This document shows, one piece after another, positions 12,303-62,176 of a DNA stretch of 64,000 nt. The notes under the pieces are model-generated. The model saw only the letters and a program-made list of their open reading frames with translations. It was not told where the DNA came from and did not search any database. The stretch is from contig CM060733.1 of the NCBI GenBank assembly GCA_030704615.1, positions 44,454,001-44,518,000 of the forward strand, written 5' to 3'. The position numbers and the translations under genes were made by a program. The stretch's first letter is position 1; every line of letters starts with the position of its first letter. Source of the DNA: Takakia lepidozioides. Lineage: Eukaryota > Plantae > Bryophyta.

Positions 12303-13149
12303 GTTTCTCTCTCTCTCTCTCTCTCTCTCTCATTCTCATCTTGGGTAGAATACTTCAGGTGGAATTAAGTGATTCTTTCCTATGGATATCCTGAAACTGA
12401 CAAGTCTATACTTGCTGCAAAATTCATTCCCTGGCTAGGGCCTTGTGGGATTTATTGAGTGCCCATTTGCTGGTTTGAATCTAGGGTTTCAGAATCCTTT
12501 CCCTGCAATTTAGTATGATCAAGTGTTCAACAGAATGCCTCAATGATCTTTGATCACGTGGAATATAATGTTGGCAGGATTTACCAAGCATGGGTGTGGT
12601 AGGAATGCTTCTGATCCCTGTGGATCAATAGCTACAGGAAACCTGCGTCAACTGGAAATAGCAGCGCAGCAACACAATTGATAAAACTAGGCATTGCTAA
12701 TGAAGGCACCTTCTTCAACACATTTCAGCCTGTTTTTCCCTGTTATCAGACTCCCTAAATTTTCAGGTTGAATCCTGCAAGTTAACTCGTTGGCAGATCT
12801 ATGGTGGTTTTGGAGTGATTTTGACATGTTACTGCCAATGTGGCAACAAGAAAGTATCGAAGAACAGATAACAGAGACGAAGAGAATCTCTGGAATAAAT
12901 ATGTTTCCGACCACAGTCAAGGGTGGAACGATCGAGGCAAAAAGGTGAATGCCTGTTGGAAGCGCAAGTCAGCATATGAACTAATGTGATAAGTAGGGTT
13001 GGGGTGTTTACTAGAACAAATCTAGGCTGTAATTGTCAGCTGCTAGCAGCAAGGCAAGGATGTATGCATGATTTGTGCAGAGCGTGGATAGCTGAAGGAG
13101 CAGGGATAGAGTTTGGGTCTGGAATGAATACTTTTCTGACCCCAGTGCT

Positions 13150-13335
13150 TGTGTTGTGCTTGTGCAAGCCTGGCAGCCCTGGAAAAGGGCAAAGAGGTCC
13201 ATGATGACATCATCATCAAAGCCGGAATTGTACCTGGTGGGCATGTATGCCAAATGTGGCAGCATTGAGGATGCAAAGGGAGTAGTTGACAATATGGCTG
13301 AACGAGGTATAGTGTCGTGGAGGGCAGGATATGAA
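13150..13335 (+). pseudogene. PLS-class PPR fragment
   Basis: ALEKGKEVH...LVGMYAKCGSIEDAKGVVDNMAERGIVSW, frameshifted. Confidence 0.8.
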
Positions 13336-18700: not shown

Positions 18701-21700
18701 AATCCTTCCTTCTTCCTTCTTTCCAGCCCTCGTATGCAGCCCGCCATCGTTCTTCACTATAGTACTTCTTAAGCTTGTGCCTAATCCAAGGGTTTAACAC
18801 TGATATCTGGATTAGCTAGGGTATTTACCTCTTCTACCAGTCAGTCTCGCCTTTTCTGCGTTAGCAATTTCCTACTCTGTCAGATAGATCTGCTTTTTAG
18901 TTTAGCAAGTGCGCTTAGTTTGGGAGTTCTTCCATTTCTCTAGTCAAGCCTTTCTTTCATCATCGTCTTAAGTGCTGCTTAGTTTCTTCTTCAATGGCCC
19001 CTGGATTCTTCAAATCCCACTTCAAAGATTCGATGGAATCAAGATTTTCTACTGGAGGAGCTCATCAGCAGCAGAGGAGAAGTCAGCCCTCAACTGGGAC
19101 CGGTTTTTTCCGGGCCCACCAAGAGCGCTCCAGGGTCCTCTCCAGCAACACCCCAGTAAGATTTTTCTCCCCTAGCCCGATTTCCCCCATTCAGCCCTTC
19201 ATCAAATTTCCAAGACTTCACCCTGTTCCGGAGGAGAACACCCTTCCACCACCGGCAGATGACGACTAGTCCAATGGCACAACAGCGCATCAGGACGAGC
19301 TGGACAAAGACTATCCTCTCATCTTGTTGAACATCTCAGACCTTCAGAAAAGAGTAACGTCAATGGAGGAGCATGGAGGAGCATGGTATCTTAATTCATT
19401 TTCCAGGAAAGAAGGTTGATAGGGCCACGGTTCGTGACTGGGCAATAAGACACCTTGGAGGTTCGGGAGAACTCAACCAGTTGTTCTGCCATGCCAAAGG
19501 CCGGGGTTTTTTTTCCATACTTTTCGAAACCAGGGAAGCTGCCAATCAAGCCCTTGCGTTCAACCCACACACAAAAGGATTTAACGTCAATATTTTCCGT
19601 TGGTCCTCGAAAATGGGCCATAGGAATGGCAAACTTTGGGGGCCAAGGATTGTGTCAGTGCCCTACATTCCAGACCAATGCTTGGTAAATCTACCGGACA
19701 TAGCCAATCACTTCGGCTCTTACCTAGGTTGCTTGGCAGTGTTTGATCCTCAAATGTGTACACTGAGCCTAAGACAAGATCCTTCAACCATGCAGACAAC
19801 ATACCATTAGGAACGCTTCCTTCGGACGGCTCGCTCACGGATAGATACCCTCAGATCTTGCCACTTTTCTCCTCTGACTTCTTTCCTAAAGGCATACAAA
19901 TACAAGCCATAACCATTTCCAAAATTCCACCAGACCAATTCCAGGCGGTGCCTGACAGCCCTCAACCTCCATCCACACGAGGTATATTTATTCGAGTCAG
20001 TAAAAAGACTCAGAAACCACCAGACCCATTTGTTTAGGTCACATCCTTGAGACCTCGCAACAGTGCAATTCAATTCTCTTACCGTCATTCAGGGCCATCA
20101 AATTCGACGTTCGGTCTAGGCCTTGAACTCTCTCCTTATGTCACTTAACATCCAATCATGGAACATCAGAGGCCTGGGGGCAGACTTGGCGTCACTAAAA
20201 AGGGTGAAAATCAAGAACTGGCTCGCCCCCTTCCTAACCTCTGATTCAGTGATCTTCCTACAGGAGCACAAACTAGATCAACATAAAATCGATAATCTCA
20301 CAAACCACCTCTGGCCTCTAACCAACTCCCTGTGGAAACCCACCTTGGAAGGGACAAGGGGGGGGACAACAATCCTTCTATCCCCCCTCCATCCATCCTT
20401 ATCTATCGGCAGAATCCATTTGGCTCCCTGGAAAGCTCCAGTTCTATTCAATTACCCTTCCAAACAACTCTGGCTCCATAGGCCTGGTAAATATATATGC
20501 GCCAAACTCTTCCACCAAGAGAACACAGTTTTGGTCCACATTGAACTCCAAAATGAGAGACCAGCCTGAAATTGACAGTTGGATATTATCAGGAGACCTT
20601 CAACACGGTTGAAGCCCAGCAGGATAGAAGGGGTCTTAGATCATTTAACCCCAATCATCAAGAGGAGATGGACCAATGGCTCTCTTGTATGCAAAACCAC
20701 AGCCTAACTGAGGCTACGCCAATCTTCGGCCAGGCTTCAAATCTAAAATTCACCTGGACATTAAATAATAGAACAATGGCAGACCTATGCATGGCGCACC
20801 TGGACAGATCCTACATATCCCTAGATCTGGTGTAACTATCAAGAAGGCTCCCCCAAGAGCCAATACCTTTAGGGTTTGACCATGCTCTGATCTCGCTCTC
20901 TGTTTAGTTCCCATGAAATCAATGTCGTGGCAGAAGCATTTTCAAAATCAACAACTTGTTACTGAAGTTGCCTAGCGCAGGGTCTTGGACAAGCCTGGGC
21001 AAGGGCTAGGCTCCCGAATCAAAACCCTACGGAAAAATTTATAGCCAAGCTCAAAGCTGTCAACGTTGAAAGTCAGAAATGAGCAATGCACTGTCTATCA
21101 TCAGAAAAAAAAAGGTGGCTGCCTTGCAAAAATGTCTAAAAGTCTGTTAGGCCAGAATGGAATTGACCAGATGTGATGAACATACATATCATACCTATGT
21201 TCAGGCCAGATGCAACCTTGATTTCTACCATAAAATTCAGGAAAGAAAGCTTTAGGCTGCAGGCTGGTGTCAACTGGTCTACCAAAGGTGAGAAAATGAC
21301 AAAATACTTCTTTGACAAGACACAACTTTGACCATCTCTGAACTCATTGACCAGACTTCCGGATTATCTGCCACTACACCCAAAAGCCCTAGCAGAATTT
21401 TCCAGTAAATATTTCCAGCTTCTATTCAAAAGTGACCTTACTGATCTCACTCCTTCCCCCCTCTGAGACTGCCTATTTGGCACAAACACCCACCATACTT
21501 ACTGGCCAAAAAGCTTCATTTCTTGAAGGGGAACTATCTGAATTAGAGCTGGAGGAAGCCTTGCAGAAATTACAAAACAATAAGTCCCCCGGCATGGACG
21601 GACTTTCCGTGGAATTCTACAAGGCAATGTGGTCGGATATCTCCTCTGACTTATAGCAAACCATTTGTTTGTACAAGGATTTATGCCCCCTGCCCTATCA

Positions 21701-23989
21701 CAAGGTGTTATCACCTTGTTGTACAAAAAAGGGGATAGAACCAACATTTCCAATTACAAACCCATTACCTTGTTGAATGTAGCATATAAAAATTGTAGCG
21801 AAAGCATTGGCTCTCAGATTGTAGCCTCTCCTACCATCACTAATACGGCCCAATCAAACTGGGTTCATAAAAGGTAGATTCATCTTAGATATTCTACTTT
21901 TAGCTCAAGAGGTACCCGATTATGCTTCCATAACAGACTAGGCCATTGCAATGCTTGTTCTGGGATTTGAAAAAGCGTTCGACAGGGTAGAATGGCCCTT
22001 CCTCCTTGCAGCATTGGCTAGGATAGGCTTCTTGCCAGACTTCTGCAGATGGGTGCGCATTCTTTTAACCACATCCTCCAACAGGGTCATTGTTAATGGT
22101 TACATCTCCTCTTCATTTCCTCTACAAAGATATGTATGGCAGGGGTGCCCATTGGCCCATTTTCTCTTTCTGGTGGTGGCTGACACCTTGGGTTATCTGC
22201 TGGATCACAACCACAATATCAGGGGACTCAAGATCACTAACTGCATTACACGACAACCTAGTCATCTCATAGATTCCATGTTCGTTGACGACACATTTCT
22301 TATACTTCAAGCAACAATGGAAAATCTAAACTCGGCAGGAGACGGTCTTAACGCCTTTTGCTAAGCCTCGGGCTTCAAGGTTAACTGGAATAAAACTTCG
22401 GCCTTGCTTGTCGGAGATTTATCACAATCCACATTGGGTTCACTGCCTACGTGGGGATCAAACCAGGGTCTGAAGTGGCTCAAACTGGGGGAGACAACAA
22501 CCCTGCTGGGTTACACCTTTGGAATAGACCTTACAGATGAACAAAAATTCACCCCTGTGCTGCAAAAGCTTAAAAACAACTCATATACTGGGGCTCGAAG
22601 CATCTATCCCTCACAGGTCGGGTCTTGGTGGCGAACCAAATCTGCTCAGCTGGGATGTGGTATTACTCTTCTTCCTGGCGCCCTGATTTGAAACAAGTCC
22701 AAGAAGCCAGGCGCCTCCTTAGAAACTTCATCTGGGAGGCTCACAAAGCTACAGACAACAAACGACCACAAGTAGGCTGGAAACAAATCTGCCTTCCCAA
22801 AAAAAAAAGGTTTGGGAGTCTTGGACTTGGAAACTCAAATCAATGCACTTCTTGGAAAATGGATTCCACGATTCCTAGGGCCTGAAGGAGGCTGCTGGAA
22901 GTTTCTGGTCTACGACCACATCGTAGCCTCCTCTCCCCTCAAAGTGCCCACTTGGCAACCCTCGTTGCGCTGCATAGTACACGGATTCAACCTCAAAGCA
23001 ACATGATCAATTCTTTGGACAAACATTTGGCGAGCATGGGGTAAGCTCTGAAAAAACCTGGTTAAGGCCCAGCCCAAGACCTTCTACGAAGTGCTAAGAC
23101 AACACCTTTTCCTCAATACAAACTCATCGAACCCTTCTCAACGCAGTCATGCCAGACGCTGGTCTTGCTGGGACAAGCTGGGAATCAGCCAGATCAACAA
23201 CATATGGAAAAATAGGTCCCTCCAACCCGTAGAATCGATCTCAGACCTGGTAGACAAGGGAAGGGCGAACAAGGGATATCAGGCCCTCGTCACTTCCATA
23301 AACCCTCAATAGTTAGTTATACTGGGATCAGGTGCTGGTGGATAATATGTGGGGCTTGGCCATTTACCAGGGTCAGCTATCAGTCATTTTTGTACAATAC
23401 GCAACACCAGAGCAGTTTACAATCTTCAGCTTTCACATTAACACAACCACTCTGACACTTACTCTTTCTTCAACAATTCCCCAGCTCATTCAACCAATAT
23501 TTCTAACCCCGATTTGGATTTGCTGCTGGTCCTCACAGGACAAAGCATTCAACCAACCCTATTTTAACTAATTCTGGACTTTTGGCTTATTCGAACATGG
23601 GGTAGACTCCTACTCTACTATACTCGATATAACTTATAGTAATTTTGATTGAATCTTCATGTTGACAAGCACAATATTCAGAGACAATGCCATTGGAACG
23701 ATGGTTTGGGTGTGAGAAGGGCAGTAAAATATTAAAATAGCTTGAAACATTAGGAAGATGATCTACTAGGGTAGTAAAATAAGGTTTGGGGTGTAACTAG
23801 ATATATTAAGTGCAATAAGGTGTGGTGACTCGGAGAAGGGTTTAGGTACCCTGGTAGACTGTTTGCTACGCAGGGGCAAATACTTCTTGTAGATGATGAG
23901 CCATCAAAGGGCATGCAAAACCCACAAAATACTGGATTCTTCTCTTTCTCATTCAAGCCATCACCAAACAGCTTGCGTGACCGGGATGA

Positions 23990-25708: not shown

Positions 25709-27615
25709 CTTGGACAAGAAAACCCATTACTGGCAAAGCACCAATCTTTTACCTGGTTTCTCACCTGCCCGCTGGCAGATTTGTAGTTTGACCCAAGGGA
25801 GTGGAATTGGATGGATACCCCTTCTTTATCTACTCGGTGAAATTGGTTATTCTCTCATCAACCCGCCTTGTTCCTTTACATTAAAGTGGTCCACAAAATG
25901 GGGCAACAGACATTTCACTCAAGGCATCTGGGATAAAATCTGGAAAGACATTTGGAAGAAAGACTGAGCAGCAAAAATGTGTGGTTTTTTTTGGGAAACT
26001 GACACACGGAATACTCCCTGTCAAACAAGTGATACATGGAGACTAGCATTCCTGCACTCTTTGTCTTGCAGAACCAAAGTCCATTGAACATTGTTTGTTG
26101 TTCTGTAATCTGTCAAGTAGGATCTGACGAGTGGTCCTTGGTTTCTATTTCATTGGGCTTCCTTTCCATCTCCACGACCCTCTCCGTCTATTTTGCTTCT
26201 CAACTTTCTGCCTGGTCAATCCCAGAATGTCTGCCCAGTATGGGCATCTCTTAGCGCCCATATTTTGTGGGATTTGTGGAAAACATGTCGTGCGCACTAG
26301 TGCTTAGGTCCCTCTAAGTCCAGGTAGCCACAAGATGTGATAGTGACCATAGCCTCACTAAGTCCTCCACCACTATCCCTACTACACTCAAACTCGATAG
26401 ATCAAGAGGCCGGGTGCAAGAGTTGCCCCATCGTTAGTCGCCGTCTTGCAACTTGTGAACTTGAGCTTGGGATCTTGTGTATTGACTCCTATGAGCTTGG
26501 CCTCCCATGTCTTGTTAGCTGCCTCCAGTCATGTCCACTGCCACTATCCCAAGCAGTGTGGACACAACCAATCTCCGTTAGGAACCTTCTCAAGAGGTGG
26601 TGTCAAACATCCCTTATGCCAACCCCTTGAGCATCGATCACACACAAGCATGGTGGTTGCCCCTTTGGCAGACCCACAGAGCATGCACCTCAAACCTGCA
26701 GGTACCACTGCCAAGTTTGGGTCAACTCTGTCATCGACATTGGGAAGGTGACATGACGCACAATTACGCACATGGCCCTTCCAAGTCATGCCATCCCGAC
26801 CCTCCAAGATCAGGACCCCTGAGGGCAACACCTCTCGAACCCTCAGAATAACACACCCTGCAGTAACATCCAGAGTCGTAGGAGCGGTCTGCTGCAAATA
26901 AACATAGTTACCAGGGCTAAACCTCCGAACCCCAGGACGATATCCTCCACCACGTATAGTGGCATACCTCAACGTATCACGGTGCTGTGCAATGGCAAGG
27001 TTCTCAAAAGCCATGGGCATGACTTTCTTGAACAACTCTGCACGCTGATCACATGCACGTATTTACATATCCGGATCGTCAAGGTTAAGGACTTGAGCAG
27101 TGTCCCTACGAATGGCTGCAGGCAAATCCGGCTCTCGGCCAAAGAGAAGAAAATATGGTGAGAAGGAGGCAAGTGATGTTTGTTTGCTGAACCTGTAGCC
27201 CATGAATAACCAAAGAACCTGAAGATCCCAATCTCCTAGGTGTCCTTGCAAGCCATACTTGCGCAAACCCCTCTTCACCGTTTGAAGAACTCTCTCTGCC
27301 AAGCCATCGGCCTCAAGATGATCCCGAGAAGTGGTGCGGTGGTCTATCAAGGCTTTATCACACAAAGCCTGAAACTCCCCTAAGAACTCTCTCCCTTGGT
27401 CTGTGAGTACCTCAGCTGGAGCACCAAATCAGCTAAGCACATGATCCAAGAATGCATACGCAGCCCCCTCACTAGCCTTGTCAGGCAATGGAACCAACTC
27501 AATCCACTTGGAGAAGTGCTCCACCATCACCAACATATATCTGTGGTGGCGCATAGTCAGTGGCAACGGTCCTGCAAAGTCAAGACTCCACTTGTAGCCC
27601 AATCCCATGATTGGT

Positions 27616-30600
27616 CACTAGAAGAGAAACCGGCTTTTTCCACGGTTTTTTCCACATTTTTTGCTGTGGAATCAGCCACAGTCCACACCTGCCGTGGGTG
27701 TAAGGAACGACTAGTGCTTTCGGACACCCCGTGGACGGCCTAGCTCTCGGGTGGCCCTGTGGAAAAGTCCACGGGTGGCTTTTTTCACGGGAGGTTTTTT
27801 CCATGGGTGGGCTTTTTTCACGAGGTGCATAGTGACATGGCCGCTGACATGGCCGATGACATAGCTGATATGGCAGAGTGTGAAAAATGCCATGTTTCAC
27901 GGCGGATTTCACACCTTGAACAAGCCACTATGCGACACGTGTCATATTTCACACCTTCGACAAGTCACTATGCAACACGTGTTCGTTCCTGTGTGGTGGT
28001 ACACATTAATTAATTATTATTTGCTTTCCAATATTAAGTTTGAATATTAATGGATTTAATTTATTGTTATTATTATTATTATTATAGGAAAAATGGACAG
28101 TGGCCTAGATGAGAACATTATTAAATAACAAAATATTGAAATTATGTTTTTAGAAATTATATTTATTCGCTCAGATACTAAAACACACCCTTTGCAGGGA
28201 AGGAGAGTTTGCCTTAGTGTCTATGTTGAGTTGCGTCTCCTACTCTCTGTAATCTAATAGACATTCATCTTTTTCCCTCAGTTGTCCCACCCTTGACTGC
28301 GGTCAGAAAAGCATTCATTCCACAGCTTCTCCTCATCTTTGTTACATGTTTCTGGATACTTTCCTATTGTCACTTTGGCAGTATCATGTCAAAATCACTC
28401 GAAACTATGTACCATCTACCCATGAAGGTTTCTTGTAGCTAACCCTCCATAGGGAATCATAAATAATCTGGAGCTTGAAATCTGGCCCTCTTGGATGACA
28501 CTCTATCCCTGCTCCTTCAGCTATCCATGCCTCTGCACAGATCATGCATACATCCTTGCATTGCTGTTAGCAGCTGACAATGGCAGCCTAGATTTGTTCC
28601 AGCAAACACCCAACTCAACTTATCACACCAGTTCCTATTCTCAATTGCATCTACCACTCTGTAATCCAAAGGCATTTACCTTCCAAGACGGTTGTCCCAA
28701 CATTGACTCGGGTCAGAAAAGTATTCATTCCACAGCTTCTCCTCTCTGTTACCTATTTCTGGATACTTTCCTATTGTCACTTTAGCAGTATCATGTCAAA
28801 GTCACTCCAAACTATCAAAGGTTCATTCAACCAGCTAACTTGCAGAATTCTTAAAACATGAAAATTTGGGGCGATTCTGATAAGAGGGGAAAACAGAGTG
28901 AAATGGGTTGAAGAAGGTGCCTTGATTAGCATTGCCTGATTTTATCAATTGTGCTGCTGCTGCTGCGGCTTCCAGTTGACCATCTACCCATGCAGGTTTC
29001 TTGGAGCTATTTTTCCACGGGGAATCACCCCTTCCCGCATCATTGCTCATAGGTCTCCAAAGCCTCCATCCGCGCCCTTGTTGTGCATATCCTGCAATCA
29101 TCGCACTCCAAGACACCACATCTCGTTCAGCCATACTGTCAAACACTTCCTTTGCATCCTCGATGCACCCACATTTTGCATACATGCAGTCCACCAGGGC
29201 AGTGTTCATAATGACATTGGGTACAATTCCAGATTTGACGATGTCACCATGGACCTCTTTGCCCTTTTCCAGAGCTCCCAGGCTTGCACATGCATTACAA
29301 ACAAATGTGATGTGGTTGGGCTTCACCCCTTCGCGCAGCAGTTGCTCATAGGTCTCCAAAGCGTTCCTACCACACCCATGTTAAATCCTGCCAACATTAT
29401 ATTCAACGTGATCAAAGTTCGTTGAGGCATTCCATTGAACACTCGGTGTGCATTCATGATGCTCCTGCACTTAACATACATGTTCACAAGGGGGTTGAGG
29501 AAAAAAACACTTGGTGTGAATCCACTTTGGATAATGTGACTGAAATGCTCCTTGGTTTAGAGGATGTAGAGCCTCTTTCAGCTTGCGTGCCTCACAAAGC
29601 ATCTTCAAATGCCCAGAAGAGCAAGAAGAGGCATTATGGACTCCCTCTCTTGATCCTCTTTTAGAAGCTGTGGTATGGTTGAGGTGCCTGATTTAAATCA
29701 GGGCTGCCAGGCCTGCAATGGTCTGCCAGGCCAAGCCTCCATCCCACGTCCCTGTTGTGCATACCCTGCAAGCATCGCACTCCACGACACCACATCTCGT
29801 TCAGCCATAGTGTTGAACACTCCCTTTGCATCCCCGATGCACCCACATTTGCCTACATGTCCACTAGGGTATTGTTCAAAATGACATTTGGTACAATTCC
29901 AGCTCTGAAGGTGTCACCATGGACCTCCTTCCCCTTTTCCAGAGCTGCCAGGGCAGTACAATTCCAGCTTTGATGATATCCCCATGCACCTCTTTGCCCT
30001 TCTCCAGGGCTGCCAGGCCTGCAATGCACACAAACATGATGTGGCCGGGCTGGACCCCTTCCCCCATCTGTTGCTCATGGGTCTCCAAAGCCTCCATCCC
30101 ATGTCCCTGCTTTGCATACCCTGCAAGCATCGCACTCCATGACACCACATCTCGTTCAGCCATAGTGTTGAACACTCCCTTTGCATCCTCGATGCACCCA
30201 CATTTTGCATACATGTCCACCCGACTATTGTTCAAAATGACATTTGGTACAATTCCAGCTCTGAAGGTGTCACCATGGAACTGCCAAGGCAGTGTTTCGA
30301 ATGACATTAGGTACAATTCCAGCTTTGATGATATCCCCATGCACCTCTTTGCCCTTCTCCAGGGTTGCCAGGCCTGCAATGCATACAAACATAATGTGGC
30401 AGGGCTGGACCCCTTCCCCCATCATTTGCTCATAGGTCTCCAAAGCCTCCATCCCACGTCCCTGTTGTGCATACCCTGCAAGCATCGCACTCCACGACAC
30501 CACATCTCGTTCAGCCATAGTGTTGAACACTCCCTTTGCATCCCCGATGCACCCACATTTTGCATACATGTCCACTAGGGTATTGTTCAGAATGACATTT

Positions 30601-32082
30601 GGTACAATTCCAGCTCTGAAGATGTCACCACGGACCTCCTTCCCCTTTTCCAGAGCTACCAGGGCAGTGTTTAGAATTACATTAGGTACAATTCCAACTT
30701 TGATGATATCCCCATGCACCTCTTTGCCCTTCTGAAGGGTTGCCAGGCTTGCACAAGCATTGCAATGCACACAAACATGATGTGAGAGGGCAAAACAAGT
30801 TGAAATAGGTCAAAGAAGAAGATGCCCTCACCACATTGTCCTTGAGGTTGTGTCATGACTTGACCGACCATCAACCCAAAAGGACCTCTTGTGTGTGCTG
30901 CTTGTGTCTGTAGTCAGGTAATGTCGGATTGGTCTGTGAGATCGAACCTCCACAGTGTAGCTGAGTAGGCAAAGATTGAAACACGGCCTGCTATGACCAA
31001 GCTAACTCTCCCAAGAACGGCAAGCTTGCAAGAATGTTGCGAGCTTCCCCTCGTCTCATCTCCTCCTTCTCTCCTCCTTCCTGCATCATTTGCTCAACGC
31101 CTCCATCCCACGCCCCTGCATATCTTGCGATCATCGCGTTCCATCCCTCGGCTACATGGTGTGGCGCAGAGAACAAAAAAAAAACGCCAAGTCCCAGCCC
31201 TCCTCTGTGTTCACGATTACTCTAGTGGGCACCTTATTAGCAACTTTTTAACTTTTTTAAACCTAATGGGCAACCTTATTAGCAACTTTTTGACTTTTTA
31301 ACCTTTTGCACTTTGATTCATTCTAGGTCAGAGGCTAAAGTCCTGCTATCAGACTTGCCTAGAAAACCAAAACACCACGTAGACAAACATTTGATAATGG
31401 TAATAAAATATATTACCATTGGGCTGGTTTGAACACTTGTTAGTAAATTTAGATTAGGATTTTTAGGTTAGGATTTTTTCGAAATATTCTGGTTTTTTCT
31501 TTGATGTGTGAGATGACAAAGTCCAAGCATGTCACATAAACAAGGAGTTCAACGTAAGGATGATGCAAGTGATTTGTGGCAAAAAGTGTAAATCATGCCT
31601 ATGCCTATTTGTCCTAGTTGTGTCATAGGTTGCAACGAAACGGGGCCACCTTTGAATGCGATCCCCATGCTCATTTCACCAAGGGCATTATAGACTTCAT
31701 AATGTAGAGATTGAAAATGGGGTGTATTCTTCACTTGCTAGTACCATCGTGCAGATTTCTAAACATGAACATGAAGTTCATAATCATTTTCCAAGGGCAT
31801 CATTCTCAAACTCCCCATACACCACAATCAGTGGAAATAATTGTATGTTCCCATTTCACACAGGTGTGTAACATGCCATGTAAACTAAGCCAACCCCTGC
31901 CACGTTCATGGCTGTTTTCACACCGTTCTTGCCTGGGGTGTGGACAACATGTGAGACACCCCACAGTTAGGGCATATTTAGACCCACACCTTGGCTCAGT
32001 GTACAGACCCGTGATAAAAGCCGTGGAATGTGCCAGGTGTGAGATGGCAGAGCCGTGGAAAAATCCGGTTTCTCTTCTAGTG
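27616..32082. mobile_element. Non-autonomous Pack-CACTA element carrying PPR gene fragments
   Basis: 18-bp perfect TIRs CACTAGAAGAGAAACCGG / CCGGTTTCTCTTCTAGTG; 3-bp TSD GGT (27613-27615, 32083-32085); CCACGG/CCGTGG subterminal repeats. Removal restores integrase ...QLHPLP-IMGLGYKWSLDF. Confidence 0.93.
28835..30780 (-). pseudogene. PLS-class PPR repeats (fragmented, tandemly duplicated)
   Basis: Repeated ALEKGKEVHGDIIKAGIVPNVILN-LVDMYAKCGCIEDAKGVFNTMAERDVVSWSAMLAGYAQQGRGMEALETYEQM units with frameshifts. Confidence 0.9.
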
Positions 32083-33189
32083 GGTAAAGGATGCAACTGT
32101 GGTGTAGGGGCGTTGAATGAAGCACGCACCCTGTCACACACCATGCACCTAGCCACGAACTGTTGCACCTCTGTATGCATACCACGCCACCAATACTGCC
32201 CCTGCAGTAAACTATGAGTGCGTCGCACTCCAAAATGCCCCAACTCCTCATGGGCATGCCGCACTAACCCTGCACGCTGTGTGGGGTGAGGCACAATCCT
32301 CATCCGACCATCCTCCCATACTCGGAGCAGGTGTATCCCCTCCCACTTGAACCTCTTGGCTCGTTGCAGGATCCGATCCCTCTCCTTGGCAGTTATAGTG
32401 GCTGCCATGTCTCTAGTACGGAGGTAGTCCAACACAGCTGAATCCTCATGTATATCTCTGGCACCACCTGGCTCATCACTAGCCTCAGGGTCCTCAGACA
32501 CTCCGTCTACAGTCATCCCTGTTGTAGGTCCAACCTGACCTCCCGATGCCAAGATGCACAAAAAAGCAGATGCATGCCATCCCAACACCATCTCCTCGTC
32601 CGTCTCACCATGCCACCGAGCTCCAGTGTCATCCTGCTGGCTCGTGCATGGATTGCGACTGAATCCATCCGCATCCCTATTGACCAAACCCGGTCGATGC
32701 ACAACCTGAACATGTCTCTCATGCTCCTCCACCGTAGTATGAGAGGCAAAGCAATTCATGTAAGCCTCAGGAACCGCCGTATATGTCGTCTCTCTCCTCT
32801 ATAGGTCCAATGTCAGGCTCCCAATTGCCCTTCGTAACTGCAACCTTAAGTCCAGCAGACTTAGAGGTAGAGGACGCGTCCCGTGGTTGCTATGCCGCAA
32901 CCTCTTGAGCAGTACTCCCTGCCTGCTCAGTCAATGACAAGGCCTCATCCTGCCCCATCATCTCATCCTTGAAGACCTCCTCAACCAGAGAAGAATCCCC
33001 AACCTCATCCATCACAGCCGCCTTGGCTGCCAACTCCCTCTGAACCTCGAGCAACTCCCACGTGTGCCATGGATGTCTACACCATGTGGTCCTCACCGGC
33101 TCGCCCCCACTCACTGCCTGTACCGTCTCGGTAGGCAGAGAGACCGTCAAGGAAAATGCACTCCGCACTCTTCGTTGCTCAGCCATAGC

Positions 33190-34140
33190 CAAGCTGATAA
33201 TCCAGGTCAAGCAATTTAGATCCATTGCTTGCCCCAACACCTGACGACGTGATGCCTCAGAAAGAGAAGGCACCGCCGTGGTCCCAGTGGAAAAACCCAT
33301 AGCCCGCTCTCGCTCGTTGGCATTAGGCTCCACTAATTGCTGCAACTAAGCATCCCATAAGAGGCCAAGTCCATTATCCCGGAAAACATGCGATCCTGGG
33401 AAGCTGAGTAGTGTAGGTAATGTTGCTCGTGGTTGACCCACCTTGTTGACCACTGCCAAAGGCGAACGGTCATCGTGTCTCACACGCTGAGACGGCCTCC
33501 CTATGTCCAGAATGCTATCCACTATGAGATGTGCTGGCCGCTGCACCCCATCAAATGCACGCTTAAGCAGTGGGGGTGGCATCAAGTTAGTCCACCATAG
33601 CTGTGGACGATGAGCCCATGACCCCACTGTAGCTGCATCTAGCAACACTGTTGACCCAAGCCACGACCGGACTTGATGCACACTGGCCATCACCCCGGCC
33701 GGAGAATCGCCCATCAGTGGCACATTCTCCAAGATGTATGCTGGAGATACAGCTTGATGAAGCTACAAGTGGCGCAAAACCCGCACCATCTCCCAAAACA
33801 GACCCGATCTCGAGTCTCGCAATCCATTGTCATGCCTGGCTGATGAATACCCTTGGCATGGCCAACCTGCCACTACCAAATCAATGAAGCCAACCCGCTC
33901 CAAATCCTGCGCCCCCAGCAAAGAGCTGTCTGCTAGCAAGGCCTGCTGATATCCACGAACCGCAGACATCAGCAACAACTCAGGGTACTACTGCGCCAAC
34001 TGAGCAATATGACGGAGTGAGTCGCGTCGTGCAGTCTCATCCCTCTCCACATACAGGTTATGCCAAACTCGTACACCTGCCTGTAACACAGCAGCCAATC
34101 CAGTGCTAATCCCGCCAAACAAGTCCAGAAGACAAATGCT
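33190..34140 (-). pseudogene. C5-cytosine DNA methyltransferase domain (Dnmt3-like) inside the pol polyprotein
   Basis: All in one frame and in canonical order: motif I ICLLDLFGGISTG, II LYVERD, IV DLVVAGWPCQG (catalytic PC), V SRSGLFWEM, VI YILENV, VIII AHRPQLWWTNL, IX EPNANERERAMGF, X RRQVLGQAMD. Three in-frame TAG stops (33988, 33763, 33346). Confidence 0.92.
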
Positions 34141-34559
34141 TTCATCCCGATACTGCCACACAATAGGTGTAGTGTCCAATGGAGACAACTGAGGTGGTCT
34201 TGGTGCAATCCCCGCATTCTCCTCCTCTCCTGACGGTACAAAAGCCTCCACCCAGGTTTTTTGCACCCGTCGATCAGCATCCCGCTGCAAATCCTTGCTC
34301 GTGCCCCACAATGGAGTCTGAGCAACCATGGTAGACAACTCCGCCATACCATACATATCATCCTGCTCTCTCGGAGGTGGCATATCCTCTGAATGAGCGT
34401 TGCCCTCAAGCAACTCTCCAGGCCAACTCACTGCCGCTGTGAATATTGCTAGTGTCGGCATCTTGCCTCGCTGGGCAAACGCAACTCCTCCTAAGAACGT
34501 CACGGGGAGCTGCACACGCCGGCCCTCCCCTGACTGCCATGTAGGCCTATAAGAAGCTG

Positions 34560-34930
34560 ACTCCTCCCAAAAATCCAGGGTGAAGCCCATGGGGTACAAC
34601 ACTGCCCCACCAACCAGGAGACCGCGTCTGTCACAATGGCCTTGGCTTGCATCACTGAGCCATCTGTAGGGTGATCCGGCCATAGTCTGATAGCCAACTC
34701 ACGCCGTGTCATGCCCCGAGCCTGCTCCGATCCTCCCAGAGACGTCTGTATCTGGAAAGGACAATGCTCTATAACCGCCTTCGTGAGGCCCAGGCCTGCA
34801 ATAGCAGCTCTGCCTAGCATCAATGGCTGAGCTCCCGAGTCCAACAAGACCCGCAGTGGCTGGTACCTCTTGCCTGCCGGTCCACTCAAACAGAAAATGC
34901 CATCCTGGTTGTCTAACATGACAACTCCAG
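34560..34930 (-). pseudogene. Retroviral-type aspartic protease
   Basis: LRVLLDSGAQPLMLG catalytic motif (~34850) and downstream LVGGAVLYPMGF after a small frameshift. Confidence 0.85.
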
Positions 34931-35599
34931 GTGTAACCATGGCGCGCTCAATGGTTGGCCTAGCTGGCAGTTCCATCAACCTGGCAGCTGCAGCTTGCCA
35001 TGGCGCCAGCGTGGCAGTCTTGACCCTCAAACCCGAGGATCCCTCTGACACTACACCTCCCACTATCTCCGCAGAAGATGAAGTAACCTCCCCACTCTCA
35101 CAGAGTGTAGCTGCCAGCCTGAACACCCGGCGTCGCAATCATGGTAGCCGAGAACAATGGAGCCTGGCACACAGATGTGGCCGCTCCTAGCAGCACACTA
35201 GCTGCGTAGATTTGGCAACACTAGGTAGTGGTGCTACCCATGTAGCTCTCCCCAATGGCATAGTAACCTCCGCCTCGGTAACAGTCGGGCGAGAACTAGG
35301 TGCCATGGATGGCGTCGACACTGTCTCCGCCAATGTGAATGACTGAGGAAGCCTAGCCCAACGGCTTGCCTCCCCACGTTGTGGATCCAATTCCATCTCT
35401 GCACCTCGTGGCTCAGGAACTCGTGCTGTTCCTCGAGTCACGGCTGCAGCAGACTCCACCTGCACTAGTGGTAGTGTTGCTCCGCACATGAATCCTACGC
35501 CTCCCATATCTCCTCCCTCAGGAGCAAGAGGTGGACCATCCGGCCTTGGAGCCGGTACCACCTGAGCTATAGCCATGGCAGCGAGCCTCTGCTCTAGCT

Positions 35600-37043
35600 G
35601 CTGAAGCCGGTTGGCCATGCCTTGGTCAACACCCTGACCTCCGTGTCCTTGGCCATGTTGAGCTTGCCCTTGGCCTGCACCTCATGCCTGGCCACCTCGT
35701 CCTCTCTGGGCTGCTCCACCTCGCCCCCGGCCACCATTGTTCCCTTGGAACTGGTCTGGGCGCAACTTAGGATGCAAACCATAACACTGGGCTTCTCCAT
35801 GCCCGTGCTTGCCACAATGCCCACACTACAACTCTGCAGGCTATGCATGTGCCGGCCCTTTGCCTCCCTCTGGGCAATCCTTCTTGACATGGGGTCCTCC
35901 ACATATCCAGCACACCACATCCGCCCATTGTTGGCCAGCAAATGAAGGGAGAGACCCCTGCATCTGAGGTCCTCTCTGCCCTTCCCTGAGCTTCACCTGA
36001 GCCCCCTTGTTGCGTTGAGCACGTTGAGGTAGTGGTTGGCTAGGAGCACCTCTACCCCGACCACTACCCCGTGGTGTCTCCTTAGCAAATCCCACCACGA
36101 CCACTCGTTCCTCCACCATGTTGAGCTCTATCCGCTCTACCAGCAAAAACACATTCGCTAAGGTGGGTTGGGCCGCTTGTAGGAGAGTTGCATCCCGCAC
36201 CCTTCTCCTCAGCTCCTTGTCCAATATCCCATACCAGAATTGGACTGCTTGAGCTTCCGTAACCCCTTGGGTTACATTTATCAAGCGCCTCATGCGAGTG
36301 AAAGCCTCCCTCAAGCTCTCAGTAGGCTTCCGTTGGAACTCTTGCAAGCTCCGCAACTTCTCTGTCATCACCCCTTGGTAGTTTCCTCTGAACTCTTCGA
36401 AGAACTCCACAACAGGGTTGAAGGCAGGCACGGGTACTGGAGCTGGTGCGGTAGTGGCTTGGGTGGACGTCGTAGCTACGGTACCACCAGTCCTACTAGT
36501 CCCACTGCTGCTTGCTGAAGCTGCCGGTGTAGCGGCAGGTGTAGCCACTGCCCTCGTGATTCTAGTGGCCCTAGTGATGGAGACATAGTCGGGTGACCAG
36601 TACATCCTCCACTCCTCGATCTCAACCTCATGCCCCCGCCTGAACTCATGGTAATCATCCATAGGCGGCCCCTCAAGGTGCTGAAACATCCCCTTCTATG
36701 CCATGAAAGGCGTAAATAGTTGTGGATTGCGCATTTGCTGCAAATCACACCAACTATCAAACTCTTGGATAAAATCATCCAACTCGATGGTGCCCACCGC
36801 CCCAGAGTATCTTCGTGGCCCCTTGGTAGCTCCATACATCTCCTCCATTGTGTCCCACAACAATGGCAATGAAACAACTTGCATCGCCGGTATGAGTCCT
36901 CCTGATTCACAATCCGAATCAGAACCTTCCGTAGAAGACACAGGAGGTGAAGGTGGCCTAAACCGGACACCTCGTCTCGTGTACCCATTAGTATCGCTAG
37001 TGCTCAAACCGGCACTGTCCCCAGCAACTAGTGGCACCTCCAT
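35600..37043 (-). pseudogene. gag: Gag with two zinc knuckles
   Basis: IELDDFIQEFDSWCD, FQRKPTESLREAFTRMRRL (major-homology-like), CWICGGPHVKKDC and CGHCGKHGHGEAQC. Same frame as the protease, broken only by in-frame stops. Confidence 0.85.
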
Positions 37044-37789
37044 GTTGACACTCAACCGGTCATGAACATGTCCCTAATCCCCTCTCCACAAGGTAACCGG
37101 GTAGAGAACCTGTTGCGGCTTATGGTTTGGAATACTAAGTTCCTAACATAGCCTACACCTGTACCTGCATCCACCGCAAGCACTTCTATGGTTAGCTGGT
37201 CATCACCTCCAACCTCACCACAGGAGAAACAATGATGGTCTGGCTGGTCATCACCCGAGCCTCACCATCGACAACATGCTCTAGGACTGGTCGGTGATCA
37301 AATCCGGACCAATCACCTATAAAAACAAGCGCCCACACAAAACTAGCATGGCGCACAGTCAAGCATGCAGGTATGGAGGGGATCCAAACACAAGAAATCG
37401 GAACGACAACTCCCCCACACCAAAAACAACTCCAGGGTGTTGCTCCTGCAAGGACACCCCAGCCCAAACCCGGACTGACTCTTGCCTCCACCTACGGAAA
37501 GGTCTTGGCCTAATGAGAGGGTGGAAACTACGAGGAAGAGAAGCTAAAGCAATGCCTAACCTCAGCATGCCCTCATCCCAACACTCTTTTTCTCCTCTCT
37601 TTCCTCACTTGCATGACCATGGAAATATTATGAAGATACTCCTCAAACCGCCCTCCACAAGCTTTTAATTCGGCCTTCAAGACATGCCAGTCCTTAGGCA
37701 GTCCACCAGTGCCTCCACGAGTCAGCACAGGCCGTCCACAGATCAACACGGGCCACCACAGACCAGCACAGGCCCACACAGATCACTGG

Positions 37790-38870
37790 TCATAGCCGTC
37801 ACAGCCCTACAAAGGTCACAGGGGTCACAGCCCCAAAGGCCATAGCCTCTCACAACCCCTCACAGCCCGTCACAGTCTGTCACAGCCCTACACAGGTCAC
37901 AGGGGTCACAGCCCCAAATGCCACAACCTGTCACAGCCCCTCATAGCCCGTCACAGCCCCATAGGCCACAGGGCACAGCCTGTCACAGCCCCTCACAGCC
38001 CGTCACAGCCCCACAGGCCACATGACACAGCCTATCACAGCCTGTCACAGCCCTACACAGGTCACAGGGGTAACAGCCCCAGCCACAGCCTATCACAGCC
38101 CCTCACAGCCCCATAGGCCACAGGGCACAGCCTGTCACAGCCCGTCACAGCCCCACAGGCCACATGGCACAGCCTGTCACAGCCCTACACAGGTCACAGG
38201 GATCACAGCCCCAAAGGCCACAGACCGTCACAGCCCCACAGGCCACAGGGCACAGCCTGTCACAGCCCCTCACAGCCCGTCACAGCCCCACAGGCCACAT
38301 GGCACAGCCTGTCACAGCCCCAAAGGCCACAGCCCGTCACAGCCCGTCACAGCCCCACAGGCCACAGGCACAGCCCACCACAGCCTGTCACAGCCCGTCA
38401 CAGCCCCACAGGCCACAGGCCACAGCCTGTCACAGCCTGCCACAGGCTGTCACAGCTCGCCACAGCCTGTTACAGCCCGTCACAGCCCCACAGCCACATG
38501 GCACAGCCTGGCACAGCCTGTCACAGCCCCTCATAGCCCGTCACAGCCCCACAGGCCATAGGGCACACTTGTCACAGCCCGCCACAAGCCTGTCACAGCC
38601 CCTCACAACCCCTCACAACCCCACAGGCCACTGGGCACAGCCTGTCACAGCCCCTGACAGCCCTCACAGCCCACAGGCCACATGGCACAGCCTGTCACAA
38701 CCGCCACAGCCCCTCACAGCCATCACAACGTGTCACAGCCCGTCACAGCCCCACAGGCCATAGGGCACAGCCTGTCACAGCCCACCACAGCCTGTCACAG
38801 CCCACCCAGCCTGTCACAGCCCATCACAGCCTGTCACAGCCCGTCACAGCCCCACAGGCCACTCATGACA
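37790..38870. repeat. Complex tandem array of short CACAG-core units (GTCACAGCCC, CCACAGGCCA, GGCACAGCCT)
   Basis: Dozens of CACAG-core units over ~1.1 kb, upstream of gag within the Ty3-related element. Confidence 0.95.
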
Positions 38871-39297
38871 GTTTAGCCATTTCTCCAAGGGGTTTAGCCA
38901 CGCCAAGCTAGGGTTTGTGTCTCTTGGACTCTATGCTTCTTTGCACCGAGCTATGGCGGCTGTGAAGAAATCAGCAAGGTATTCTTGCTCTTTCGGCTCC
39001 CACACACCACCAATAGTAGCCCTAAAGCCATGAGGAAGATGGTTGCCACAAACCAAGCCTTCTTTCTCACTTAGACTCCCCAAATCCGCCACTAAACTCA
39101 ATGGCAAACAACCAAGCCTTGCCGGTTTCCAGCCCTTGTGAGCACTCATTCAAGCGTTTCCCTTGGCCATAGCATCTGTCTTAGAGCCTATTTCCAGCCC
39201 CTACACCTGCCACTTCAAGAGCCATGCTCTATCTAGGCTTGAGGTTGAAACCCCAACTCAGAACACGCTCTATAAGTGTCGGACTGTCACATAAGAG

Positions 39298-39720
39298 CAG
39301 ATCAGCCCCTTACCTTCTCTTCTAGTTCTCTATTAAAGCTTGAAAACAAAATCCCAATGGACTGAAGGCATGCTCCACACATGCCCCACTCTCACCACCA
39401 GAGAATCAGCCCCTTTGCTTTCTTTCTTGCACCCACCAACCTGAAAATACACGCTTCAGCGGGCTGGAAGCATGCTCCACACATGCCCTATAGGGAAACC
39501 AGCCCCTTCCTTCCTTTCTTGCACTCGCAAACCTGAAAGTACAAGCCTTCAATAGGCTGAAAGCATGCTCCACACATGCATTGCTCTCACATAAGGGAAG
39601 TCAGCCCTTCCCTCTTCTTTGCTTGCCCTCCAAGCTTGAAGATGGAAGCTTCAATGAGCTGAATACATGCTCCACACATGCAACCTCTTCACACAAGAGG
39701 TATCAGCCCCCTATCTTGGC
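39298..39720. repeat. ~100-bp degenerate tandem repeat, 4+ units
   Basis: CAGCCCY near 39301, 39406, 39499, 39601 and 39703; CATGCTCCACACATGC near 39369, 39471, 39564 and 39666. Confidence 0.8.
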
Positions 39721-41348
39721 TCCTTAGCTCCTTGATGCTCTCTAAGACAAGACTAAGCATTCCACAACCCTTGCCAAGCTCCTGAAACCCTAAGGCTTAC
39801 ATTTCCATCCACAAGACATTCCTCTTGTGGTGCAAGAGCTCTTCTTCCAAGCTCTGAAACCCTAGGTGCACATTCCATGGCCTTGCCGCTCCTCTTAGCT
39901 CCTGTTCCAGCCCTGCTCTTGCCATGACAAGAGCCCTCTCGATGCTGAAGCTCGAGATTGAAACCCAATCTCAACATACTCCACAAAGTGCACTAATTTG
40001 CCCCAAGCCAAATCAGCCCTTTCGCTTGGTCTTGCAATCCTGTAGCATGGTGCTTTCATCTCTGAAGCTGAAGATCGATGCCAAGGTCTACCACCTCGTA
40101 ACCCACATCGCCTCCGCTTCTAACAACCAAGAGCTCCACGGTGCTCCTTGCATAACAACCTGGTTTCTCTCATTCTCAAGCAAAAACCACAAGTGCTACA
40201 ACTAACTCGTATCTGGCACTCACAGATACGAGCTCATCTTTCTCGAGTGATAAAGAAGAAGAATACAAGCACAAGCTCATGCGAGTTCACAAAGCTAAAG
40301 CATAAACTCATGCATATATAAACTCATCACTCAAATACAAGTCAAGCCAAGTGCACCCCACGCCATGGGGAATCCACACTACGGCGCCATAGCTAGGCGC
40401 GGTGAGGCTCAACTCGAGAAATAGATAAGCCTCCCGCGCTTGCCGTGAAGATAACCACTCCAGGGCCTAAATCTACCTTGACCCCTGGATTGACACTTGG
40501 GCCAATCCCAAATGTCAATATGTAAAAGCTAGTTATTTCCTAGCTAGTTTCACACTAGTGGTAAAATAACTTGACAAACAAAATGTGCCTTGGTTTTTGA
40601 GGGGAAACCCCAAGAGGCAGATCAGTCTTGTTTTATCATGATCTGTTAACTGAGGGGAAAGCGTGCGTTGATGTTTGTGCAGCTATTCCCAGAACTATGG
40701 AACAACGAGGGAGGAAGCTGCTTCAACATTTCCAACACTCAATGCTCGGCTCGATCTTCCCAACTTGTGCTTTACCTGGCAAATCTCCATCCCCCCCTCA
40801 ATGGGAAGTCCTCTGGTGAGGGGGATGAGGCAGACTGCAATTGGCGTCACAAGAGAGATCGAGACCCAAAGTTTAGAACTCAGCTGAGATTCTGAAACCT
40901 GGACGTCCAGTCGACTGTCTCTACTCTACTTCCTCTTCAGCTCCCGAGCACTTCAATCAAGCCATCGAGCTCCCAACTTCATCATTATTTCGTACTGCTC
41001 TTTCTATAGCTTAATGCCTCCTGAAGCTTAACTCTCTTGCAGCTCAGATCTCCCTCGGAGTACCATTGCACATTTAGATACATATGGGTTGCCTATCTCG
41101 TAGATCTTACTTAGCAAATCTTTCACACTTCTGACATAGCATCTCCTTAGCAATTACAACTCCCCCCTGCATTCGCTCCCCCTCTGGCATCTGCTCTCTC
41201 TCCTTTCGCTTCATTAGCTGGTTAGCTAGGGTGACGGGAAAGTTTCCCCACACTAAGCCTTCACGGCCTCTACGATGGTTATTTTTTCCACCAGTGTGAC
41301 TACTTTTTTCATTAATTTGATTAAAAGAACATATGTCCCCTTTCTTGG

Positions 41349-41439: not shown

Positions 41440-42500
41440 ACACCCGCCGGGTATCCCAATCCAAGCTTGGTTGGCTAAAGAAACATTTGCCTAGATAGGG
41501 GGGAAAGAACTGCAATTTTTGCAGCTGGATCCAACAGAATGGATGTGGAAATTTGGTTCTGCACCCAAGCTTTTTTTCACTTACACTGCCAAGAAGGCTT
41601 ACCAGGCTCTCCTTAATGCGTCTCTTGTGTCAAGTAAATGGAATGCTAGATCAGGGCATGCAAACTTTGATATGGAAAACTGGAACTACATATGGAAAAC
41701 CACTTGGGATAAGTCCAAACTTGCTAAACTAAGTGCCTTTCTCTGGCAGATTGCCGACAGGGTTTTGAAAGTAGGCCAGTTCTTAGGTTTCCAGGATGCT
41801 CTCCTTTGCAGATGCTGCCCAATTTCTACGATTGAAACCTTGGAGCATTGCCTACTCTTCTGTCGGGCTCCCATGGCCGTTTGGCACCCCTGGCTTTCTA
41901 CCGTTCGTGGGGATCAGCCCATACAGGGCCCATTGCACTCCTCAATTACAATCAAGCTGATAAATCTAAGGCCTATGATTGTCCTGTCTTCGAACTTTAA
42001 GGACTGCAAAGCAATAACCACTGGTCCCTCATCTTCAGCTTCCCCGGAGTTTGAAAAATCCAACATCAACTGGAAACATATCAAAGTAGCATCCCGAGCT
42101 AAACTTCATTTTCATATATAGCCTTATTTCCACTTCTCCCCAATAAGTTCAGGTCTGTTTTAGTTGAAGATTTTTGCAATTTGCTTCTTCTGCCTAACAA
42201 GGGCCCCCATCTCGGGGCTCCTACTCAAAGCTTCCCATGTTCTAGCCAATAAGGCGCCCTTCCTCGTTAGGGCAGCGATCATCATCCAGGTCTTGGATCG
42301 GCTCTCTTTTGGGCTCTAGTCTAGAGTCGGATTATGGTTCTTATGGTATCTCCAACACGTTCCTCGTGTGATAGGCCTCATGGCGGCCTTCGGGCATGTA
42401 AGGGTTTTAATTTTTTTTCCCTTCAATAATCATTAATAAAACTAACAAGGGCTTCCGTTCATTCCCTTTCAATTTAAAGAAAAAAAAAGAAAAAAAAAAA
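41440..42500 (+). mobile_element. 5'-truncated LINE 3' end with poly(A)
   Basis: ORF 41519-42121 has LINE zinc-finger region FLWQIADRVL...CRCC...ETLEHCLLFC; A-tract at 42476-42500. Confidence 0.8.
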
Positions 42501-57628: not shown

Positions 57629-59031
57629 GCCCTTCTCCCTTTCCGCTGTTCTTCACCTGGCTCCAAAGGGCTCCATGTGCAGGAACCTATATAAGGCCGG
57701 TCGAGGCATGGCTAATAAATCCCCCATGGTAATCAGAGGACACAAGGGAGAGGAGAACCACAACAGAAAGCGTAATGAGGGCGCTGCACATTGCACTCCT
57801 CACACCATGCCGTTGTCCCTACGAAATACGGCCTGCTGAGTGGTGGACGGATTGGACGTAGTTGTCATACCTCCAGGATGGCCTTGAGCACCACGGTCCA
57901 TTCTCATACTGAAAGCGTAGCGAGAACATCAGACCCCAACCTACTGTCCAACCCAAGCGTCAAAGGGGACCGGATACTAAATTGTGTGTGTGTAGAAGAG
58001 AAACAAAGAAAAAAAATGAAGAAAGAGACACATCGAGATAGACAGAGAGAGAGGGAGAGAGAAGCAGAAGACCTCGTTTCACAGTTGGGAGAGCCAGGAA
58101 ATTCTCCGCTAGAAACCAGGCAAGAGAGAATACAGGGCCTTCAGTACACACACATTTCACCCGACAGACGGAATGCAGACTGTTTTTAAAAACAAAAAAC
58201 CGAAATCACAAGCGATCAGAAAAACCCTTCAGAATTTCCCACACTGAGGAGCTCACAGGGAAAGAGCAAGAATTACTTTGAGCAAGGACGCAATGCATGG
58301 TCGACAATCTTCGCAACGCAACGAGAAGGGAGGAAGTGCAAGGAGAGAGGAGGGGTTCCAAGCATTTCATACTACCATAGCCTTCATCCATCCTCCGCCC
58401 ATCTAAACTTCATTCATCCTCAATCCATCCATCAAGAATGAACGCATTAGTGATGCATCCTCATCCATCCATCCAAGGATGAAATAGGGTTAGTAAGGAG
58501 TGGATAAAAAGCAAAGGAACGAGATTTTGAGATTGGCACGTGCGGGGTTTTTCAAACACGACCCGCGCAAGTCTGCCACACTAACTCTCGTCGCTGCTCT
58601 CACTGTTTGTGCGACCTTGGCGCGCTCTGCATTGCCTCTCTCTCTCTTCCTCTTCTCTGCATTGGTTTCTCCGCCAATGCAGCTACCACTGCACTGATCC
58701 TTTTGTGAAGGGTGCCCGCATTGTGCTTTTTTTTGTGTCTCTGTCTGCCAATCCAGCTTCCAATTCGCTCGGTCTTGTGCAGGTTGTGGGTCCCCCTATG
58801 TTTGTGTTGCTGACAAGGTCAGTAGATTGTTCTCCCTGAGTGGTTCTATCCTTGTGGTGCGCAGCTCGGTTTGTGATTCTCTCACAGCCTGACTATCTGC
58901 TGGGTCTCCAATTCTTTGTCGTCACCACATCATTTGTCGAGTGTTCGTCTCTCTCTGGATACAGCGCCCATTGACTATTTACTGTTCGACCTTCCTTCCC
59001 CTACTATCTGTGTTAGGCCAGCTGGAGGAGC

Positions 59032-62000: not shown

Positions 62001-62176
62001 ACTGCCACACTGAACGCCCCTCAGGGAAGACTAGAGAATATCTCCAGTCATCTCAACTGCCTGAAAGGCCCTCTCGCAAGAGTGGAGAGTTTCCCCTGAT
62101 CTCTTCTCGGTCTGACAGGCCCTCTTTCAGGGGTGGGGATTTTGTTCAGAGATCTTACTGCCCTGACGACTTTTGA
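59032..62176 (+). CDS. IQD: IQ67-domain calmodulin-binding protein (IQD family)
   Basis: Exons 59032-59115, 59312-59533, 60045-60269, 60897-61010 and 61247-62176. [13 protein letters not shown]|[26 protein letters not shown] with the characteristic phase-0 intron, [37 protein letters not shown]. Confidence 0.95.

Follow-up and report, generated by a model that had tools for sequence, protein, structure and literature searches.

A Ty3/gypsy retrotransposon family of mosses and liverworts with a Dnmt3-like methyltransferase domain and a conserved readthrough-type stop

A decayed Ty3/gypsy element in Takakia lepidozioides

The window, a stretch of 64,000 nucleotides from Takakia lepidozioides (assembly GCA_030704615.1, contig CM060733.1, positions 44,454,001 to 44,518,000), contains a whole but decayed Ty3/gypsy element on the (-) strand at 26286-40576 (all coordinates are those of the window). 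The element has TG...CA ends and is flanked by a 4-bp target duplication, TGTT, at 40577-40580 and 26282-26285. Three complete relatives have ends similar to these two, the 5' end of this copy being placed by one 9-base match in 8 kb, which has a likelihood of about 3% by chance. No pair of terminal repeats was found in this copy, and its 3' repeats appear to have been deleted. The element contains, in order, gag, a CCHC knuckle, a protease, a cytosine methyltransferase (DNMT) domain, a remnant of reverse transcriptase (RT) and RNase H, an integrase and a PHD finger. A degenerate tandem array (37788-38852, unstranded) lies within the 5' non-coding region. The stop-broken gag with its CCHC knuckle (35763-36848, (-)) was recognized by tblastn to the relative P0004 and by a PF03732 match below the cut-off (E 4.9e-4). 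The aspartic protease (34495-34931, (-)) contains LLDSGAQ at 34847, gives a weak PF13650 match (E 0.0097) and carries a frameshift near 34610-34620. Beyond the DNMT domain, the RT start, a short later piece of RT and the end of RNase H are fused over deletions (32652-32883, (-)). The integrase consists of a zinc-binding domain (32083-32294, (-); PF17921, E 5e-16) and a core with a C-terminal PHD finger (26544-27615, (-), the finger at 26553-26717; PF00665, E 1.1e-4, below the cut-off; PF00628, E 1.1e-10). It is interrupted by a nested CACTA-type DNA transposon (27616-32082, unstranded), which has a 3-bp duplication, ACC. The CACTA-type element is non-coding, with 16-base inverted ends and PPR-gene fragments at a 355-bp period, and related sequence is found inverted at 12522-13325.

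This copy is dead, as the sequence-only reading had supposed. It has lost its coding capacity to stops, the protease frameshift, the loss of a conserved arginine, deletions in RT and RNase H, and the CACTA-type insertion of about 4.5 kb in the integrase. RT and RNase H, largely deleted here, are complete in relatives, and sister contigs that come loose near 32705-32744 run on, as read from the letters, into RT and RNase H sequence. Three stops on the (-) strand lie within the DNMT domain, at 33990, 33765 and 33348. Sister copies in contigs from the same organism have sense codons at 33990 and 33765, and both of these stops are private to the window copy.

An intron-containing IQ67-domain (IQD) gene at 59000-62200 (+) is closest to proteins of Sphagnum, Physcomitrium and Ceratodon. 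Its position in a moss-only clade (support 0.81 on 152 columns) agrees with the land-plant host that had been proposed from the letters and makes a moss the likely host. Frames at 19358-22361 (+) and 41495-42121 (+) are presumably LINE remnants, with endonuclease and RT, and a frame at 2044-2574 (+) is taken to be a NAA35/MAK10 exon. CpG observed/expected ratios were 0.27-0.70 in elements versus 0.42 in the rest of the window, with no separation between them.

The methyltransferase domain and its family

The domain at 33190-34143 (-) is an intronless C5 cytosine methyltransferase domain. Motifs I, II, IV, VI, VIII, IX and X all occur within 34143-33190 in one (-) frame, with LDLFGG at 34131, GWPCQ at 33867, ENV at 33729, AHRPQLWW at 33615, ERAMG at 33315 and LGQAMD at 33237. 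The complete, intron-free motif set claimed by the sequence-only reading is thus present, and its motifs follow one another from I to X in unpermuted order, unlike those of DRM, again as claimed. The translation, with X at the stops, matches PF00145 with E 1.3e-10 and a score of 41.7 bits (cut-off 22), confirming the proposed family. One motif needs a correction: AHRPQLWW is present, but its glutamine (33603-33601) is itself damage. The family alignment has the conserved motif VIII arginine at this position in 37/38 proteins of the same domain order and in 96/97 of another order described below.

The proposed likeness to Dnmt3 rather than to MET1 or CMT was reproduced by sequence, profile and fold, each of which ranked DNMT3 first. 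For the domain sequence of this copy taken singly, the top solved structure was DNMT3A (E 2e-7). A profile of 14 family sequences matched DNMT3A with E 2.5e-25, DRM-type enzymes with 1.4e-12 and HhaI with 4e-7; DNMT2 scored far below DNMT3, and DNMT1, MET1 and CMT entries were absent from the 57 PDB matches of this profile. The predicted model of L040, a stop-free relative, has a pLDDT of 88, and its first structure matches are DNMT3A, DNMT3B and DNMT3C (TM 0.73, about 21% identity). These comparisons and the model support a Dnmt3-like domain, probably not of the MET1, CMT or DRM type. In proteins with the window copy's domain order, the catalytic Cys is kept in 37/38, the Glu of ENV in 38/38 and the two motif VIII Arg residues in 36/38 and 37/38; both domain orders show next to no variation at the catalytic Cys, Glu and Arg positions. 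A Glu replaces the Pro preceding the catalytic Cys of motif IV in 12 of the 38 same-order and 55 of the 97 other-order proteins.

Annotated proteins of Marchantia, Riccia, Calypogeia and Sphagnum include relatives with 60-71% identity. Protein searches returned 35 longer relatives and 146 of similar length (120 of the 146 among the matches listed), and in a profile search 602 clusters scored E 1e-30 or lower. The named relatives come from Marchantia polymorpha, M. paleacea, Riccia sorocarpa, Calypogeia fissa, four Sphagnum species and Closterium; hornwort, lycophyte, fern and seed-plant names were absent from the named protein matches, a minority of the rows in a word-limited search. Metagenome searches gave 273 matches, and the best 80 of the 273 loci show the order protease (PR)-DNMT-RT-RNase H (RH)-integrase (IN)-PHD. 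Copies with the same domain order, for which a search had been suggested, occur both in these loci and in named bryophyte and algal proteins. Viral contigs contributed 11 loci with short, weak matches alone (31-53% over 34-100 residues), and two of the three ESM Atlas clusters shown were phage enzymes. Among the best 150 of 17,752 profile matches to 50%-identity representatives, host DNMT3 was absent and the long matches were all retroelement proteins.

All relatives were retrieved through the DNMT domain; retroelement domains stand beside it in 120/120 retrieved proteins of at least 700 aa. Two orders were found among these 120, PR-DNMT-RT and, in a larger group, RH-DNMT-IN. Proteins P0277-P0421, one of them named Scenedesmus, are Ty3/gypsy polyproteins in which a Dnmt3-like domain follows RNase H and precedes integrase. 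In 30 proteins checked for species names, Klebsormidium and Closterium were found for PR-DNMT-RT and Scenedesmus for RH-DNMT-IN, and the latter group suggests a relocation of the domain or a second capture in chlorophytes. In three of the 14 relatives examined, most of the others being incomplete, A...B-A-B repeats were found together with 4-bp duplications and TG...CA ends, which are decayed in one of the three (L047, L067 and L086). The split repeats of these three occur together with a DDE integrase. The target duplications TGTT, AAGG, GGTC and TCTC do not fit the NCGN preference of the REXdb Phygy clade (PMC6317226).

In an unrooted FastTree analysis of 61 elements with both domains, the PR-DNMT-RT group formed a clade both for RT (0.99) and for DNMT (0.986). 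RT and DNMT distances were correlated (rho 0.58), and the DNMT tree recovered 13 of the 25 well-supported RT splits. Because shared ancestry alone yields such agreement, it indicates co-inheritance and not function. The subfamily matching named Sphagnum proteins groups with Marchantia, with Calypogeia and the window copy outside (L014 and P0037-P0043 compared with P0003-P0011); this may reflect either old paralogy or horizontal transfer.

The DNMT domain is stop-free in seven of 46 full-length copies. The comparison of dN/dS among copies that had been called for gave 0.12 (L063/L071) and 0.09 (L086/L078), with a range of 0.08-0.27 between subfamilies at dS values that are measurable but near saturation. 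Close, decayed pairs gave a median of 0.62 for DNMT (556 pairs), compared with 0.36 for RT, 0.34 for integrase and 0.61 for protease. The substitution patterns support purifying selection on the domain between subfamilies.

If the window copy alone had picked up a DNMT3 gene from its host, the affinity of the domain to DNMT3 enzymes, its best solved relatives, would be explained. This reading is given almost no credence, since the domain is family-wide, as anticipated, occupying the same position in dozens of relatives in liverworts, Sphagnum, Closterium and Klebsormidium, with broadly concordant RT and DNMT trees and purifying selection.

A conserved stop and the possible role of the enzyme

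The fourth stop of the window copy, at 32892, differs from the other three. It opens the readthrough-type context TAG CAA CCA (32884-32892, (-)), in which contigs from three samples (four runs) show no variant that reaches 2%; neighbouring bases vary. Of these 80 loci, 57 extend from the end of DNMT to the start of RT, and 51 of the 57 have an in-frame stop 14-26 codons ahead of RT. The stop is followed by CAR-YY in 49 of the 51 and by the full CAR-YYA in five, as well as in the window copy; among decay stops used as a control, the corresponding counts were 13/612 and 0/612. TAA replaces TAG in 15 of the 51. As a single subfamily, with CAA CCC, accounts for 43 of the 51, and many loci appear to be repeated assemblies of one copy or another, the counts amount to about five independent cases of the stop. 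In divergent subfamilies the stop is followed by CAA CCA, CAA TCA or CAG TTA within visibly dissimilar linkers, so that the context bases are kept while the encoded amino acids change. L071 consists of frames of 1327 and 1047 codons parted by this single stop, the DNMT-RT linker is in frame in 39/56 loci, and many annotated relatives terminate about 80 residues past the DNMT domain, at the point matching the window stop. No stable or conserved RNA structure was found 3' of the stop (z -1.0 to +1.3). Because it is unvaried in sister copies and present in 51/57 relatives with CAR-YY, the stop at 32892, judged by its conservation, is not a product of decay.

The motif of type I readthrough is UAG-CAR-YYA, functional on UAA too (PMC3542737), and leaky gag/pol stops occur in LTR elements (PMC3441728). 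The family shares with tobamovirus type I readthrough an in-frame UAG or UAA followed by CAR-YY and an open frame beyond, and differs in that the stop of the moss element is placed after protease and DNMT. The context fits readthrough of the TMV type, which would place the methyltransferase on the Gag side. The sequence-only reading had placed the domain in the pol polyprotein; it does lie between the protease and the RT remnant, but upstream of the conserved stop rather than in a continuous Pol frame. As the family-wide in-frame stop parts DNMT from RT, the domain closes a Gag-PR-DNMT frame. The stop is missing in six of the 57 loci (five in the divergent L086 subfamily, and L079) and in P0336 and P0369, which indicates that Gag-level production of DNMT is not required throughout the lineage.

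At a leaky stop, the majority product ends and a minority extends. Most ribosomes would thus very probably make Gag-PR-DNMT, with an RT-RH-IN-PHD fusion as the minor product of readthrough. From the place of DNMT upstream of the likely leaky stop we infer a Gag-level dose of the enzyme and its loading into particles; carried along with Gag, it would be present where double-stranded cDNA forms. Release of DNMT by the protease within the particle is probable. That cDNA is the substrate, as proposed for algal elements, is given a little better than an even chance by analogy. The PHD finger has CHD4, KDM5 PHD1, ATXR5 and PHF21A as its best PDB matches, and the fingers of CHD4, KDM5 PHD1 and PHF21A are readers of unmethylated H3K4. 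In 47/51 sequences, a Gly occupies the position that we take to be the Trp of H3K4me3 readers. The finger might therefore read unmethylated H3K4 and direct pre-marked cDNA to silent chromatin, a step held at somewhat below even chances; animal DNMT3 likewise couples writer and reader. On balance, we favour with moderate confidence the reading that Gag-PR-DNMT, ending at a likely read-through stop, would yield a Gag-level enzyme, be packed into the particle and probably methylate cDNA before integration. The window copy itself is incapable of any of these steps.

Bulk production would also supply free enzyme, and an active methyltransferase could instead act inside the nucleus, either where the element inserts or on copies already present, and so damp the activity of the family. 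Effects on insertion-site chromatin and slowed transposition are among the options raised by de Mendoza 2018 (PMC5890265, available text), and DNMT adjoins integrase in the larger RH-DNMT-IN group. In the PR-DNMT-RT group, however, the domain is joined to Gag and lies apart from the integrase and PHD finger that reach the target, and a nuclear role is considered rather unlikely. Less likely still is a stop that is not read through, with RT made by re-initiation or from an RNA that is spliced or transcribed separately. The commonest subfamily has an ATG two codons past the stop and the imperfect context CAA CCC, and some plant Ty3/gypsy groups divide Gag-protease and the rest into two frames (PMC6317226). 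Against this stand the in-frame linkers, the retention of CAR-YY over unrelated linkers, and the missing ATG past the stop in the window copy, L040, L063, L071 and L072.

The domain could also be kept for a role other than on DNA, binding or methylating element RNA or serving as a structural part of the particle. The low identity to DNMT3A and the Pro to Glu change of motif IV would allow this, as would the Klebsormidium domain, which was without activity in yeast (PMC5890265, available text). Such a role is nevertheless improbable, since the catalytic residues (Cys, Glu and both Arg) hardly vary, the profile score for DNMT2 is far below that for DNMT3, and retrotransposon Dnmt3 domains of Symbiodinium methylate CG according to the same source.

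The first methylation of a new plant transposon insertion is usually credited to host pathways. A family bringing its own Dnmt3-like enzyme would bypass these pathways. Since the family is present in Marchantia polymorpha, with its routine genetics and methylomes, the question of its role, unanswered in 2018, comes within experimental reach; a sharp prediction about enzyme dose follows from the conserved stop, and the stop-free subfamilies provide a natural control. Some bryophyte gene models annotated as DNA methyltransferases are parts of transposons. A broader picture is offered tentatively: a green-lineage Ty3/gypsy clade may have carried a Dnmt3-like enzyme since before the chlorophyte/streptophyte split, with the enzyme relocated in the polyprotein and set before a leaky stop in the moss/liverwort branch, and its particles might deliver pre-methylated cDNA to H3K4-unmethylated chromatin; a land-plant transposon would then write its own silencing mark ahead of host detection.

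Comparison with known methyltransferase-bearing elements

What distinguishes this family from DNMT-bearing elements already described? The available text of de Mendoza 2018 describes Gypsy-Dnmt3 (KnitGypsy-Dnmt3) in K. nitens only, as an acquisition in that lineage, with DNMT in the same ORF as RT and RNase H; the authors found no methylation in yeast, a result they called inconclusive, and considered cDNA methylation, insertion-site chromatin effects and slowed transposition (PMC5890265). The moss element is not a separate capture: the K. nitens protein GAQ93235.1 (P0393) has the gag-PR-DNMT order and falls in the PR-DNMT-RT clade with the bryophyte relatives (FastTree support 0.98, midpoint root, no outgroup). 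By this shared order and clade, the family is assigned to the lineage of KnitGypsy-Dnmt3; P0393 may be one of the published copies. As far as the available text allows comparison, the two share the Ty3/gypsy domain set with integrase after RT and RNase H, an intronless unpermuted Dnmt3-like domain and purifying selection. The A-coding-B-A-B repeat layout of KnitGypsy-Dnmt3 was seen in L047, L067 and L086 and was not detectable in the window copy. The two differ in host, algal there and land plants here, and in frame, DNMT being in one frame with RT there and parted from it by an in-frame stop here, with a single frame in the L086 subfamily, P0336 and P0369.

Host plant DNMT3 and DRM share the Dnmt3-type catalytic motifs (PMC6453930; bioRxiv 10.1101/2021.02.12.428880, available portions), whereas the element domain is intronless, lies in a polyprotein and is not permuted as in DRM. 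The Marchantia relatives have gene numbers other than that of MpDNMT3b (Mp5g09290), as given in the accessible portion of bioRxiv 10.1101/2021.02.12.428880. In the available parts of PMC12344493 and bioRxiv 10.64898/2026.05.21.726589, Gypsy-Dnmt3 is termed streptophyte and land plants are unnamed; one supplement of PMC12344493 gave no matching entry. No description of the bryophyte element or its conserved stop was found in the literature searched, although published trees may include Marchantia sequences; this is consistent with the earlier statement that such elements were not known as a described land-plant family. Three points are new: the occurrence in land plants, the conservation of a readthrough-type stop, and a second order of domains found in green algae. 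DNMT capture accordingly dates back further, and extends more broadly, than the one algal lineage described.

Two further systems provide a contrast. SymbioDIRS-Dnmt3 of Symbiodinium also carries a Dnmt3-type domain in a retrotransposon, but is a dinoflagellate DIRS element with a tyrosine recombinase and, according to the available text of PMC5890265, of independent origin; de novo CG methylation was demonstrated for it and cDNA methylation proposed. The EpiLTRs of Cymbomonas and Euglena are likewise LTR elements with a cytosine methyltransferase and a chromatin reader. They differ in having a DNMT4-related domain, an adenine methyltransferase and a chromodomain, and are called distinct from streptophyte Gypsy-DNMT3 in the accessible text of bioRxiv 10.64898/2026.05.21.726589.
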